Positions 10,570-63,229 are shown, numbered from the stretch's first letter. The stretch: 64,000 nt of DNA from Octopus vulgaris (GCA_951406725.2 OX597822.1:47120001-47184000); one strand, 5' to 3'. The notes: generated by a model not told the origin, from the letters alone. A program made the numbers and translations.

Positions 10570-10613
10570 ACACAACATTTCTGCTGATATATCCTCCAGC
10601 CTTCATCAGGTGT
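10570..10613 (-). ncRNA. Decayed minimal type I hammerhead motif in a Penelope-like terminal fragment (~10487-10617)
   Basis: Minus strand: ACAC-CTGATGA-A-GGCTG(10 nt)CAGCA-GAAA-TGTT-GTGT; two substitutions from the ideal GGCTG/CAGCC and GAAACGTT. Confidence 0.55.
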
Positions 10614-11136
10614 CTTCACAACTGCTTACATGTATATATATATATATGTGTGTGTGTGTGTGTGTGTGTGTGTGTGTGTGTGTGTGTGTGTGTATATGTA
10701 TGTATAGCCATTGATCACGTGTGAGCAATGAGGGAGTCAAGGAAGAAGAGTGAGAGAGAGAGGGGGAACGGTGAAGAGGAGAGGAGAAGAATAGAGAAAG
10801 GGTGGGAGAGAAAAACAGAAAGGAAGAAGAAGAGGGAGAAAGATAGAAAGAATAGAGATAGATTAAGAGTGCGCATCGTAATTAAGATAAAACTTACTTG
10901 GAAATAGATGCGAGGCGTTCGTTCTTCCTTTGTTTTTCTCTCCCACCCTTTCCCTATTCTTCTCCTCTCCCCTTCCCCGTTCCCTCTCTCTCTCTCTCAC
11001 TCTTCCTCCTTGACTCTCCCGTTGCTCACACATGACCAACGGCTATCCATCTTTCTTTCTTCCACTTCCTTCCTAAAGACAAGACCTGTCTCTTTTCAAA
11101 GCTCACTTTTCCAGCGTTCACCACTTCACCCCGTTA

Positions 11137-11467
11137 TGGCTTAACAGCCCTCACCGTTTGTTTTTACTGTTTTGTTCTCACTGTCCTGTTTATGTTACCA
11201 CTTTCACCCTCCGCAAAAAATTTCAAATCTTATTTAATTTGCTTTGCGGGAAGGATTGTTTTATTGACGAAGTCGCGTCTTGTCCCTACCTTCGTAACGT
11301 GGAGTAGATACAACAATGGACACCTGCTGAAGGGAATGTTCTTTATGTTGCCTGTCTCGTTTCTCTGTTTGTTTGTTTCTTTCGTTGTTCGAAAAAGAGT
11401 TCGTTTTCCATGTTTTTGTTTTTTATGTTCTCGTTTCTCATTTTGTCTAGGTTTTTTGATGTCCTGT
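11137..11467 (+). mobile_element. Unclassified short repeat, inverted homologue of 8261-8570
   Basis: Reverse-complement similarity. Confidence 0.7.
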
Positions 11468-13336
11468 ACCCATATATGCATGTGTATATATATATATATA
11501 TATATATATATATATATATATGTGGGTTTGTACATATAAGTATGTATATATGGATATATTTATATATTATATGTATATATATATATATATATATATATAT
11601 ATATATATATATACATATATATGTGCGTGTGTGTGTGTGCATATGATTGTGTGTCTGTGTTTGTCCCCCCACCATTGCTTGACAACCGATGTTGATGTGT
11701 TTGCATCCCCGTAACTTAGCGTTTCGGCAAGAGATACCGATAGAATAAGTACTACGCTTACAAAGAACAAATTTTGGGCTGATTTGTTCGAGTAAAAGCG
11801 GTGCTCCAGTATGGGCGCAGTCAGATAACTGAAACCAATAAATGAATAAAAGAGTATATATATAGATATCTCAAATGGGCACTGGGGAGAAGGTGGAATA
11901 ATTGTCGTGCTGATGACGTCTGATGAGTCAGAAACTATCCTCTTATTCCAGATAATAAGTCTGACTTTTTCTTTTGTGACATGTACGTTTTCGAGAAGCC
12001 TTGATTCTTGTGATTATCTCTCATTCTCAAATGTTGGTTTTGATTACCGTTTGGTAATATGAACGAATCTCGGAGATAATTTGAATGTACCTCAAAAATT
12101 TGTTGTATCGTATTTGATATACCACTATCGTATGTATATATGTATGTGTGTGTATCTATCTGTCTGTCTGTCTGTCTGTCTGTCTGTCTGTCTGTCTGTC
12201 TGTCTGTCTGTCTGTCTATCTATCTATCTATCTATCTATCTATCTATCTATCTATCTATTAATCTGTATGTGTTATATATATATATATATATATATATAT
12301 ATAGATAGATAGATAGATAGATAGATAGATAGATAGATAGATAGATAGATAGATAGATAGATACACTCATACATATATACATACGAACACATACACACAC
12401 ATGAATGAACAATATTATTGCATACTACATAACACTACCGAGTATGATTTTCGCAACACTCGCCCCAGGATGAGATTGCAAACCACTACATTATACATAT
12501 GCACACCTCCCAGCAAGCTTGCATAAACACGCACACACACACACACATACACACACACACACACACGCACACATACACATGCACCCACGCACAGACACGC
12601 GCATGCACACACTTATTCATTATATATATATATATATATATATATATATATATATATATATATATATATATATATATTAATATATATATATATATATATA
12701 TATATATATATATATATATATATATATATATACATACAGAGAGGCAGACAGACAGACAGACAATTTTATCCATGAATAATGAACTCTCTACACTTTATCT
12801 CAAGCGTGTACTGAGCACTTTGATATTATGCTCTACACTTTATACACTCTAAGCATCCATATGTGTGTGTGTGTCGGGAGTACACTGCGTTCAGAAAGAG
12901 GTCTAAACGGTTGAGAGTTGTCGAGTGGACAGTATTTTGTCTTCTCCGCCAATCAAGTTAACAATTCAACCGGTAAGACTGATGCACAATGGCGGCGAGC
13001 CAGGATTTTAAACCAGACAACTTCAAAGGGTATCGGACGGTCTACGGGTAAATGTATGTGGGAGTCGTGTGTATATTTATGCATGTATGTGCCTGTGTAT
13101 ATGTAAAGATGAAATATACTCGCATGCATAAATACAGAAGTAGTAGAGAAAGAATGATAGGGAAGAAAATATACGACGTATTTATGATGTGTAGGAGTAA
13201 GGAAAGTTTTGTAGAAGTGAAAAACGGTTATACACACACACACACATACACACGCATACATATGTATACATACATATATACACACACACACATACACACG
13301 CATACATATGTATACATACATATATACACACATGTG

Positions 13337-59940: not shown

Positions 59941-60187
59941 GGAAACACTGCGCGTGTGAGAGCGTGCAGGACCACCGCCGCCACCACCGTTTGGCAACAG
60001 GTGTTGGTTTGTTTCTGTCCTCATAATTTAGCGGTTCGGCAAAAAGAGAGCGCATAGAATAGGTATTAGATTTTAAGGATAAGCACTAAGATCAAGCCGT
60101 TTGACTAAACTTTTCAGAGCGGTGCCCCAGCATGGCCGCACTCCAATAACTGAAACAAGTAAAAGAATAAAAGATAGAATATTTTTT

Positions 60188-61384
60188 CGGTAATCTTTCA
60201 GTTTAGGGTGTTTAAAAAGTAAATAAAAATAGAAGGGGCAATAACGAGGGGGAATAAATAAGTCAACTGTCAAAACAATGTAGACATTGGCTCTAGCCAT
60301 TAAAAAGTGAACGAAAGTCTTTTTGGTACTTTTTGGTTATCTCACCCCCATTAAAAAAATTGGGTTATTACCCCCACCCCGTTTTACGAGAAATATCGGT
60401 ACTTTTGGTTATCCAACTGCAAAAAATGTTTAACCCTCAATAAAAAAAAAAAAAAGAAATGATGCGCAGGAGTGGCTGTGTAGTAAATAGCTTGCTTACC
60501 AACCACATGGTTTCGGGTTCAGTCCCACCGCGTGGCACCTTGGGCAAGTGTCTTCTACTATAGCCTCGGGTCGACCAAAGCTTTGGTCGACGGAAACTGA
60601 AAGAAACCCGTCGTATATATGTATATATATATGTGTGTCTGTGTTTGTGTGTCTGTGTTGGTCCCCCCCCCCACATCGCTTGACAACCGATACTGGTGTG
60701 TTACGTCCCCGTAACTTAGCGGTTCGGCAAAATAGACCGATAGAATAAGTACTAGGCTTACAAAGAATAAGTCCTGATGTCGATTTGCTCGACTAAAGGC
60801 GGTGCTCCAGCATGGCCGCTGTCAAATGATTGAAACGAGTAAAAGAGTAAAAGAGTAAACATGGAAACTGCAAAAAATTAATAAGCATGGAAATTGAAAA
60901 AAATTAAGCATCTTACTCAGTTTGATAACATTTTAATAACAAATCATACCCTGCCTATTGAAGAGACCAAACGTCAACCATATGTTGAAGTATTGAATCA
61001 AAAAGATCTCTTTTAATCCAATCTCTTGTCGCCACATTAACTAAATTTTTTAGTGGGGAGATAACCCAATTTTTTAATGGCAATCTTTTAATGGGGATGA
61101 GGTAACAAAAAAAAAAAAAAATACCGTCTTTATTTTTTGGGAACAGAATTCTTCTATGTGAATTCGTTTGAATATGACACAAATATATTGTCCGACGTTC
61201 CAAATTGTCGCCGTAATTTTATTTTCACCCGCAAATTCTCCACATTTGCTCCACATTTTGCGTGTAGACGTCCTCATTTGTGGGATCCACAAAGTTCTCC
61301 TGGTGCACAATCCCTTCGTGAGTATAGATGTCGTCATTTAGGCTTTATTTACTTTTTTGAACACCCTAAACTGAAAGATTACCG
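60188..61384. mobile_element. Triple nest: outer MITE (TIR CGGTAATCTTTCAGTTTAGGGTGTT), inner MITE 60326-61110, family A SINE 60463-60858
   Basis: Outer TIRs at 60188-60228 and 61345-61384; inner element is homologous to 22054-22514. Confidence 0.82.
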
Positions 61385-62958
61385 ATTTTAAAAATGTAAT
61401 CCTTTTTATTAAGGTTGTTCGGCAAAAGAGACCGATAGAATAAGTAGCACTTCAAAAATAAGGTTGAGTCTATTTATTCGACTAAACTTTTCAAGGTGGT
61501 GCCCCAGCATGGCCGCGATCTTATGAGTGAAACAAAAGAGAAAAGATATACCATCATCGTCTAGTCTAGGTTCCTCAGACATTTCTAACTCGCCTACGCC
61601 ATCCATCTCGACCCTGCATTGGTTGAGTGAGATCTTCGGAGATGTATCTTGTGTTTCTGGTGAGTTGACCTTACTATGTTGTGTTCGGACGACCTACTCG
61701 AGAACGGCCAGCTTTTGTTTAGCTCGCCAGCGATGACCCGCTTGCGCTTTGCGGGGGCATTAATATACATCTCAAGCATATTTGAACTAGTAACAGGTTT
61801 TTATTTGCACACATCACTGCTTAGAGCTGTCACCCCGTATTTGCGGTGAGCCGTTAAATAGTGCAACCAGTTATTGAGCAATGACGGAATATTATAAGAG
61901 GGGGCCTGTCTCTCGAGTCACTTCGTGGCGTCTAAGTCTCCGGTCTCTACAGCTGAAGAGGAGATAACCACTTCGAAAAGCATGCACCCAACAATCTGGT
62001 TATTGGGTAATGCGAAATGGTTCGATGTGTTTATATCTTTCTGTTTACAGCTAAAAATTTTCTCCATGAAAAAACTACAGTGAATGCGTTTTTTTATGAG
62101 TTCAAATGAGCCGGAAGCATGTGCGAACTGGTAACAAGTTTTGTGTATGTGAGAGTGAGTGAGCGCTCGTGTACATGTTTGTGTAACAGTGTATATGTTT
62201 GTGAATGTGTGTGTGTGTGTGTGTGTGTGTGTGTGTGTGTGTGTGTGTGTGTGTGTGTGTGTGTGTGTGTGTGTGTGTGCGTGTGTGAGTGAGCGTGCGC
62301 CTGATTTTGTGAAGAGGTGTATATAAAATATAATCTTACCCTTTGAATAATATACGTATAAATAAATGCATGGACACATCCCACAAAAGTATATTTGTGT
62401 GTATATATATGGATATACATATATATATATATGCGTGCGTGTGTGTGTGTACATATACATATATATAAATTTGCGTATGCGTGTATGAATGGTTATATAT
62501 ATATATATATATATACATATATATATGTGTGTATATATATATATAAATATTTGTGTGTGTCTGTCTTTGGTGGATGTCTTTACCACTTCAAAGGGATTAA
62601 TACCCGCCAATTACAGCACTGTAATGAAACACCGTTCACTTGTTCACTGAGCTGCCCACCACCACCAACACCACCACCAGACGTAAATGTATGGAAGGAC
62701 ACAGACTTCCCCCTCTGTTCTGACGCTTTTGTTTCCTCGTCTTCTTTTTTAGTCTCTTTCTCTTTTACTTCTTTTCCCTCGTCATATTCTCCACCCCAAC
62801 TTCTTTACTTCTCTCCTGGAGCATAATGAATCCACCACCACCACCACCACCACTACCACTACCACCACCACCACCACCACCACCACCAACAACAACAACA
62901 ACAACACCACCACCACCACCATATATGTATATATATATATATATATATATATATATAT

Positions 62959-63229
62959 ACAATTGCAGCGTGGAAGGTGTTTGTAAGCTATTTAAGAAAC
63001 ACACAAAAGCCGTTCGATTCACTTCAACAGCACGGATTTTTGTCAGTGAACAGGTCGCGGATTTTAGCGACGAAAATATTTTGACAAATTAAACTTAAAT
63101 GTTGAAGTGAATCGAACGGCTTTTGTGTGTTTCTTAAATGGCTTACAAACACCTTCCACGCTGCAATTGTTTTCGTTTCAGCACATGATCTCAGATCAAA
63201 TTACTTGCTATGCGAGTACATCTCCGTAA
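62959..63229 (+). mobile_element. G3-C8 HHR element in (TA)n, with a truncated inverted copy at its 5' side; HHR motif at 63039-63088
   Basis: HHR identical to 53783-53832; 62959-63029 is the reverse complement of ~63100-63170. Confidence 0.85.

Follow-up and report, generated by a model that had tools for sequence, protein, structure and literature searches.

Hammerhead ribozymes in a 64-kb stretch of the Octopus vulgaris genome: terminal repeats of Penelope-like elements and their probable passengers

Type I hammerhead ribozymes (HHRs) are carried in animal genomes by the terminal repeats (pLTRs) of Penelope-like elements (PLEs) (PMC4209133) and by retrozymes, tandem units that lack an open reading frame (ORF) (PMC7229834). 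Inserted PLEs bear a characteristic signature, an inversion plus a tail (PMC8557442), and insights into its origin have been provided by the lizard element Poseidon, whose protein cuts both strands of AT-rich DNA and whose template is uncleaved RNA, the tail being delimited by the two internal RNA sites from which reverse transcription begins, and the HHR cutting only when the protein is present (PMC11167929). The enzyme that mobilises animal retrozymes is stated to be an open question, with a role for PLEs as a hypothesis (PMC7229834, PMC8969392, bioRxiv 10.64898/2026.07.22.740005), which is backed by co-occurrence and by similarity to pLTRs (PMC7229834; bioRxiv 10.64898/2026.07.22.740005). 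Here a 64,000-nucleotide stretch of the Octopus vulgaris genome (GCA_951406725.2 OX597822.1:47120001-47184000; the window, from whose first nucleotide positions are counted) is described, in which 17 type I HHR motifs of 11 families, designated F1 to F11, are present. The explanation preferred here, with good confidence, is that the motifs are parts of PLEs and of passengers that make use of the enzyme of PLEs.

An initial annotation of the window had listed 14 of these motifs, and all 14 were found at the positions and on the strands that it gave; three more, F4 and two decayed relatives of F2, had been missed. Three pairs of motifs are the two arms of one insertion each (perfect inverted repeats of 425 bp and 258 bp, and the F11 pair), and the 14 motifs therefore represent 11 events and 10 families, where at least eight unrelated families had been claimed. 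The search descriptor allowed any base at core positions 3 and 8 (core N3-U4-G5-A6-N7-N8-A9, then GAAA...UH) and required a score of at least 14. It returned nine motifs in the window, whereas 30 block-wise dinucleotide shuffles gave 0.17 on average and the reversed window gave one, so that the comparison with shuffled DNA proposed in the annotation gave a clear excess. Eight of the nine had already been listed and one (29345, plus strand, F4) is new, and positions 3 and 8 are paired in all nine, while a stricter descriptor returned two motifs in the window and none in 40 shuffles. The listed motifs at 16345, 17012, 40850, 41133, 42925 and 43832 have core variants or decayed helices, which keep them from reaching the threshold, and were taken in by eye or from family data. 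A match at 32340 (minus strand) was a palindromic self-match and was excluded from the homology sites. Rfam gave no hammerhead family among the 150 matches listed of 319 (E<=10) for the window.

Helix III is a palindrome of 2-8 nt in F1 and in F4 to F11, in agreement with the short palindromic helix described in the annotation, a description that does not extend to F3, which has a hairpin, or to F2, which is decayed. The proposed targeting of TA microsatellites is borne out as a preference for (TA)n or AT-rich sites, with (TA)5 or longer present within 300 bp of 9 of 12 insertion sites compared with a background of 34%; the exception is F1, which does without (TA)n. Genome-wide counts of exact matches cover F1, F5, F6, F7, F10 and F11, and the reversed patterns used as controls gave zero matches throughout. 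The genome sample referred to below consists of 35 evenly chosen 10-kb stretches (350 kb). It is hardly credible that chance folding produced the motifs and misassembly the perfect inverted pairs: two inverted pairs are 100% identical over 258-425 bp, and F3, F8 and F9 fold no better than shuffles, but the excess over shuffles, thousands of exact copies with no control match, family-specific fixed 3' ends and strict head-to-head polarity all speak against it.

The link to PLEs is most direct for F11, which stands in the window together with F5 and F10 as follows (core coordinates, here and below, are those of core position 3):

53585..53922, both strands: F11, a head-to-head pair of solo pLTRs of a protein-coding PLE, cores at 53753 (minus) and 53790 (plus), G3:C8
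62960..63228, plus strand: second F11 insertion, a short inverted arm and an arm with a tail, core at 63046 (plus)
32217..32500, plus strand: F5, head-to-head inverted pieces of a probable pLTR with one U3:A8 HHR, core at 32311 (plus)
52111..52355, plus strand: F10, HHR with core at 52223 (plus), C3:G8; a piece of the family's long 3' end stands inverted before it

Exact-core copies number 1,782 for F11, 1,928 for F5 and 1,325 for F10 genome-wide. The longer F11 copies run through a microsatellite-rich 3' untranslated region (UTR) of 1.1 kb into a 530-residue ORF for a reverse transcriptase (RT) and a GIY-YIG domain, the end of which lies about 1.1 kb upstream of the HHR. At locus L093 an F11 pLTR precedes and overlaps the ORF start, running straight into the ORF, and this start is 39% identical to the N-terminus of an intact sister PLE of 1309 residues, from a family in which near-identical intact ORFs of about 1,310 residues are numerous. 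F11 is directly seen in these copies to be the truncated terminal repeat of a protein-coding PLE. The linker of the endonuclease-bearing (EN+) PLE of F11 and F5 contains a C-x3-C-x2-C motif, a feature of Neptune and Nematis (PMC8557442). For F5, inverted copies and two 3' ends were found among 14 loci, one of which (L156) has a related GIY-YIG ORF upstream, and on the strength of that locus F5 is probably a PLE terminal repeat as well. Its long helix I at 32311 was created by the inversion junction and measures about 3 bp in other F5 copies. F10 has inversions and a tail like those of F11, no ORF link was found in 20 F10 loci, and the family is probably a solo pLTR of a PLE.

In solo F11 copies, which often stand head to head, the 3' end falls at one of two places separated by 57 nt. 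Of 26 short F11 arms, nine begin at the same AG (window 53764; L021-L050), just after a branch-point-like, pyrimidine-rich stretch. A spliced junction at this sharp, acceptor-like 5' end was considered and rejected, as the copies keep the AG and have no common upstream exon, and no splice joint was found in contigs of four sequencing runs, which cover the F11 pLTR only. A transcription start, a splice acceptor and an RT stop are possible candidates for the AG site.

Several other observations concern these elements. At L027/L052:7628-8350 and L035 the F11 3' UTR and pLTR are joined to a different, Neptune-like PLE ORF, and PLE families and passengers often abut one another, such as F1 with F5 in L173 and L178. 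A very young PLE family (L097-L103, e.g. G000:C15:42993441-42997376) has many near-identical intact ORFs of about 1,310 residues with a long Asn/Ser-rich insert, full pLTR-ORF-pLTR copies and an HHR-like motif with C at core position 9. A repeat designated X12 abuts F10 and F5 (window 51940-52100, plus strand; 32500-32700, minus strand) and has four copies in the genome sample; it was rejected as an HHR (52004, plus; 32600, minus), since it has a CUGAAGA heptamer but its separate GGCUG/CAGCC-GAAA stem stands in a non-HHR order.

F6 and F7 have a different architecture, and are represented in the window by the following:

32977..33902, both strands: F6, head-to-head ORF-less units of about 533 bp, cores at 33258 (minus) and 33571 (plus), arms with different 3' ends
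40695..41414, both strands: F7, head-to-head ORF-less units of 360 bp, cores at 40910 (minus) and 41158 (plus), U4C
42470-42548, minus strand: F7 tail fragment, apart from the main F7 pair

F6 has 795 exact cores genome-wide and forms arrays of 532-535-bp units, while F7 has 2,029 exact body matches and forms arrays of 360-bp units, the exact core variant of the window being present in seven copies. The longest ATG-started frame in either unit is 54 residues, and the monomers are highly self-paired, with circular folds at z -5.3 (F6) and z -6.8 (F7) relative to 40 shuffles. Among the chromosome-1 loci listed, 23 of 38 for F7 and 9 of 35 for F6 are head to head and none is tail to tail, tandem units occur in 16 of 38 and 18 of 35, respectively, and the arrays are dispersed and short, the units listed reaching at least 7 in F6 and at least 12 in F7. 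The arms stop at two fixed 3' places, one per arm (unit positions 178 and 222 in F7, 158-178 and 290 in F6), mostly in (TA)n, and the two F7 arms of the window end at 178 and 222, both in (TA)n. The 5' junctions are random. Dispersed, short arrays with fixed RT-start ends on both arms and a random 5' junction point to array formation during insertion. F6 and F7 are thus ORF-less retrozyme-type tandem units that carry the PLE footprint. At locus L086, one arm consists of 451 bp of RT sequence of the F11 PLE joined to an F7 relative that ends at unit position 177, and the 3:8 core pair switches between F7 and this relative. No RNA dataset was present among the sequencing runs listed as holding F6.

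Whether the 5' ends of F7 arms arise by ribozyme cleavage bears on a further explanation, in which all families are retrozymes independent of autonomous elements that self-cleave, circularise and insert from cleaved RNA. F6 and F7 do resemble the retrozymes described in unit size, tandem arrangement and folding (PMC7229834), and 4 of the first 14 F7 arms hinted at cleavage ends. In 50 arms, found with a pattern that favours arms starting before position 84, cleavage was rejected as their source: a single arm begins at the cleavage site (+2), four lie within 14 nt and the rest are spread. In addition, copies of F1 and of F11 still have sequence to either side of the cleavage site. The explanation is already refuted for F11, which like F5 is attached to a PLE ORF, and it is very improbable for the families as a whole. 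The annotation had described the hosts of the motifs as non-autonomous, retrozyme-like elements, and this holds for F6 and F7 and not for F11 and F5, which are repeats of coding PLEs, or for the tRNA-headed, SINE-like F1. The 5' ends of several F7 arms coincide with the two RT start sites or lie slightly beyond them (179, 180, 180, 220 and 220 of 50; L189-L207). Arm lengths of whole F7 units are as would be expected of a circular template or of colliding enzymes.

The remaining well-sampled family, F1, has a single insertion in the window:

10481..10617, minus strand: F1, a 5'-truncated copy with the HHR (core at 10609, minus) and the long 3' end of an element of about 260 bp

In its full form F1 opens with a tRNA-like head, which an (AAT)n linker joins to a minimal HHR (C3:G8) and a tail, and it is short, dispersed, non-coding and of high copy number, with 2,121 exact HHR cores and 1,338 exact heads genome-wide. 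In 11 of 14 loci found by the F1 HHR core, inspection by eye showed a head that contains A and B boxes and leads into (AAT)n, and the A box at position 8 and the B box at 53 have tRNA spacing. Aligned to a tRNA-Val called by ARAGORN, the head scores 57 compared with 24.9 +/- 4.4 for shuffles, none of 500 reaching as high. F1 is head to head in 12 of 20 loci, and nearly all arms have 3' ends at 227-236 or 254-261, with the two ends of the family placed at 230-236 and 261; this end behaves like a pLTR, and no coding element sharing it was found among the sampled loci. All five F1 copies in the genome sample bear the HHR, which suggests about 40,000 F1 copies. Judged by its sequence, F1 is an element with a tRNA-like head that resembles a short interspersed element (SINE), with a PLE-type end and independent of (TA)n, and it is probably transcribed by RNA polymerase III (Pol III). 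The octopus tRNA-derived SINEs OK, OR1 and OR2 are presumably like F1 in size and type of head, and F1 may already be catalogued; we know of no HHR or PLE partner for these three.

The architecture of F1, F6 and F7 also bears on a simpler account, in which every family is the 3' pLTR of a coding PLE, the F6 and F7 arrays are deletion-derived satellites that were amplified locally, and F1 owes its head to a SINE that landed in a PLE 3' UTR and has been a passive rider since. This is true for F11 and probably for F5, and a local tandem amplification of inserted pLTRs has been proposed by Li et al. (bioRxiv 10.64898/2026.07.22.740005). It is at odds, however, with the dispersal, shortness, fixed ends and random 5' junctions of the F6 and F7 arrays. 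The 5' end of F1 copies lies at the tRNA-like head or a little before it, the flanking sequences are unrelated, and of 8 loci examined 5 have target duplications of 8-13 bp; no PLE ORF motif was found beside 14 F1 loci. As an account of all families it is therefore unlikely.

The preferred reading, PLEs together with passengers, draws on the footprint of head-to-head inverted arms and two staggered 3' ends, i.e. a tail, that is common to F1, F6, F7, F10 and F11, five well-sampled families that fit the insertion scheme of Poseidon. By analogy with that element, from which internal initiation and the tail are taken, the RT-GIY-YIG protein would bind the element RNA and nick AT-rich or (TA)n DNA on both strands, and reverse transcription would begin downstream of the HHR, from two internal sites separated by 25-130 nt. 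Both cDNAs would stop early and join head to head, giving inverted arms with a tail on one only, and a multimer or circle as template would give tandem arrays. Three kinds of template, integrated as uncleaved RNA, could be used in this way: the PLE's own terminal repeat, giving solo pLTRs (F11, F5 and probably F10); ORF-less tandem units of the retrozyme type (F6, F7), whose HHRs would most likely cut as dimers, releasing monomers or circles; and F1, a tRNA-headed SINE that ends like a pLTR and is probably transcribed by Pol III. Of the PLE mobilisation that the annotation had proposed, the part that stands is that the motifs travel with PLE machinery, as is seen from the ORF link of F11 and F5 and from the shared footprint; for F1, F6 and F7 the footprint suggests that the PLE enzyme moves them.

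Several results weigh against this reading. Autonomous PLEs sharing termini with the families, for which the annotation had advised a search, were found for F11 and, at one locus, F5, and about 1 Mb of loci yielded no coding partner with termini in common with F1, F6, F7, F8 or F10. Of 21 F1 heads, ARAGORN called 2 at a relaxed score and none at the default, and Rfam found no tRNA in the single F1 copy tested, the head being too degenerate for either. The L086 chimera is a single locus, and a later insertion with a deletion could explain it. Covariation, another of the checks proposed, counts in favour in F6, in which subfamilies have four pairs changed on both sides and a score reached by 2 of 500 shuffles, but from only four distinct sequences, and is weak in F10, in which two pairs give a score reached by 152 of 500. 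Furthermore, some successful families (F7 with U4C, the sisters of F8 with A6U) may not cleave. The more specific proposal, that F1 is a Pol III SINE of tens of thousands of copies whose partner is a PLE and not a long interspersed element (LINE), and at the same time that F6 and F7, by tail, inversion and the co-integrated chimera, are direct proof at the genomic level that the PLE enzyme copies animal retrozymes from uncleaved multimers or circles, is a tentative one, to which slightly less than an even chance is given.

The other families of the window are sparse or decayed:

16335..16412, minus strand: F2, type I HHR with core at 16392 (minus), C3:G8, long helix I
22808..22888, plus strand: decayed F2 relative (motif at about 22811), missed in the initial annotation
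about 23580-23650, plus strand: second decayed F2 relative (motif at about 23590), likewise missed
17008..17082, plus strand: F3, type I HHR with core at 17017 (plus), hairpin helix III and decayed helix I, one copy among sampled loci
29338..29380, plus strand: F4, minimal HHR with a U3:A8 core, homolog in L059, likewise missed
42857..43030, plus strand: F8, HHR unit of about 210 bp between microsatellites, core at 42929 (plus), U4C
43815..43885, minus strand: F9, decayed type I HHR with core at 43868 (minus), 3:8 mismatch and 8-nt palindrome, one copy among sampled loci

F9, which folds poorly (z +1.6), is the weakest of the 14 listed motifs, and the parent element of F8 was not found among the sampled loci. 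Across families the 3:8 pair is complementary, as C3:G8, as U3:A8 (F4 and F5) or as G3:C8 (F11), which argues for selection on the ribozyme fold. The exceptions to the core are the F9 mismatch and U4C in F7 and F8; in F7, U4C is present in all 55 cores read, 54 of which retain C3. U4C and A6U are expected to lower or abolish HHR cleavage, and cleavage may therefore be dispensable for spread. Sister subfamilies of F8 with A6U cores are common (L019, L024, L040 and L107; four in the genome sample).

The window also contains a trace of a PLE of another type:

36868..37110, minus strand: remnant of the C-terminus of a Hydra-type PLE endonuclease, 35% identity over 69 residues

The PLE endonuclease remnant reported at 36865-37095 is thus real, its match being the C-terminus of an intact 727-residue Hydra-type PLE protein of the same genome. 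It had no GIY-YIG match in Pfam, which also missed the intact PLE ORFs of L219 and L097, and the ESM Atlas likewise gave no name. The 727-residue protein (L219) has RWK, DKT, a CxCx5C linker, and CxxC and CxH around a conserved E and N, of which the remnant retains CxxC and E only; RWK, DKT, CxCx5C, CxxC and CxH are motifs of the (TA)n-targeting Hydra clade (PMC8557442). L219:394-2574 represents a young Hydra-type PLE with many intact 727-residue ORFs, often head to head. Upstream of it a small HHR-like motif was read by eye, and its ends match none of the families of the window.

The annotation had stressed the density and diversity of motifs, and these proved not to be exceptional. A homology library of 21 HHR clusters, biased towards the families of the window, detected 29 sites in the genome sample, or 83 per Mb, and none in the reversed control; the window contained 16 such sites and 40 kb of adjoining DNA 2. 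With the descriptor alone, 6 motifs were obtained from the 350 kb (0-1 after shuffling), which is about 17 per Mb, compared with 9 in the window. The window is therefore 3-8 times denser in HHRs than random genome samples, and the homology sites extrapolate to a total of about 155,000-333,000 HHR sites for the genome of 2.8 Gb, decayed ones counted in. At least nine further HHR families occur outside the window (L009, L005, L007/L070, L021, L042, L044, L048, L060 and L115), more U3:A8 cores among them. Coral and schistosome genomes are about 0.4-0.5 Gb in size. Published descriptor counts are above 6,000 HHRs in 16 families for a coral and about 5,000 for a mussel (PMC7229834), and 2,000-9,000 for schistosome, coelacanth and frog (PMC4209133). 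For the giant squid genome, 235 Hammerhead_1 matches are listed (PMC6962438). Given the coral and schistosome genome sizes, the density per Mb of the octopus genome is of the same order as in published invertebrates, and many HHR families in one invertebrate genome are ordinary.

Among the other features of the window is a 28S rRNA fragment of about 300 bp outside an rDNA array (35981-36290, minus strand; Rfam LSU_rRNA_eukarya, 149 bits). Remnants at 47711-48259 (minus), 6314-6784 (minus), 45531-45926 (plus) and 50379-50600 (minus) presumably represent a Helitron helicase, two Tc1/mariner transposases and the end of an RTE-type LINE, which they resemble. Tandem repeats have units of 165 bp (48477-49153), 184 bp, part of a SINE (57047-57413) and 178 bp (17929-18350).

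As RT start sites can be mapped to the base and intact candidate partner ORFs are present in the genome, the question of retrozyme mobilisation becomes testable in vitro. A tRNA-headed PLE passenger, if true, would widen the known pairs of SINEs and partners. The natural G3:C8, U3:A8, U4C and A6U cores of large families offer a test of the importance of cleavage for spread, and if the PLE-partner reading is true, the role of the hammerhead in PLE biology could readily be examined in this genome, where the ORFs of several young PLE families are intact. A literature search, outside which lay most subscription papers, Repbase and Dfam, found no octopus HHR families, no tails or inversions on retrozyme arrays and no tRNA-headed PLE passenger.

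The closest known counterparts are the minimal HHRs of PLE pLTRs (PMC4209133), which share the type I topology, palindromic helix III, an additional base ahead of helix II, U3-A8 covariation, the presence of numerous unrelated families in one genome, mostly as solo motifs, and opposite-strand pairs 100-700 bp apart. The layout of F11 and F5 is the arrangement known from that work, the supplement of which includes the molluscs Lottia and Crassostrea and, in the file searched, no cephalopod. G3:C8 in a young coding family and U4C or A6U in large families are absent from the available portions of that work, although Lunse et al. 2017 may report such variants. The metazoan non-LTR retrozymes (PMC7229834; bioRxiv 10.64898/2026.07.22.740005) resemble F6 and F7 as self-paired, ORF-less tandem units with a type I HHR, the units of F7 (360 bp) and F6 (533 bp) standing beside 350-390 bp in the mussel (PMC7229834). 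RNA circles and cleavage were shown for retrozymes, whereas F6 and F7 are known from genomic DNA. In the available portions of these two sources no tails or head-to-head inversions on retrozyme arrays are described, and in those of Li et al. (bioRxiv 10.64898/2026.07.22.740005), who cover 35 species, neither the word tail nor a mollusc is mentioned.

The Hydra clade and Chlamys MRC1 (PMC8557442) and Poseidon (PMC11167929) are alike in the inverted 5'-truncated copy, the one-ended tail and the (TA)n targets, as well as in multicopy head-to-tail non-autonomous derivatives, an uncleaved RNA template and a tail that overlaps the ORF start. In contrast to the octopus families, MRC1-type elements are algal and most Chlamys elements are without an HHR (PMC8557442), and the F6 tails of about 110-130 bp, and also those of F10, exceed the 30-40 bp described (PMC8557442; PMC11167929). 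The schistosome repeats Sm-alpha and Sj-alpha (PMC6765202) resemble F1 in that a single short repeat unites a promoter of the Pol III type with a type I HHR; in the available portions of that source they are tandem, released by cleavage and named with no PLE partner, whereas F1 is dispersed and has PLE-type inversions and a tail. The class of elements is hence a known one, and what takes the octopus beyond a further host record is that ORF-less retrozyme arrays and a tRNA-headed SINE bear the footprint of PLEs, in a genome with intact ORFs of candidate partners.

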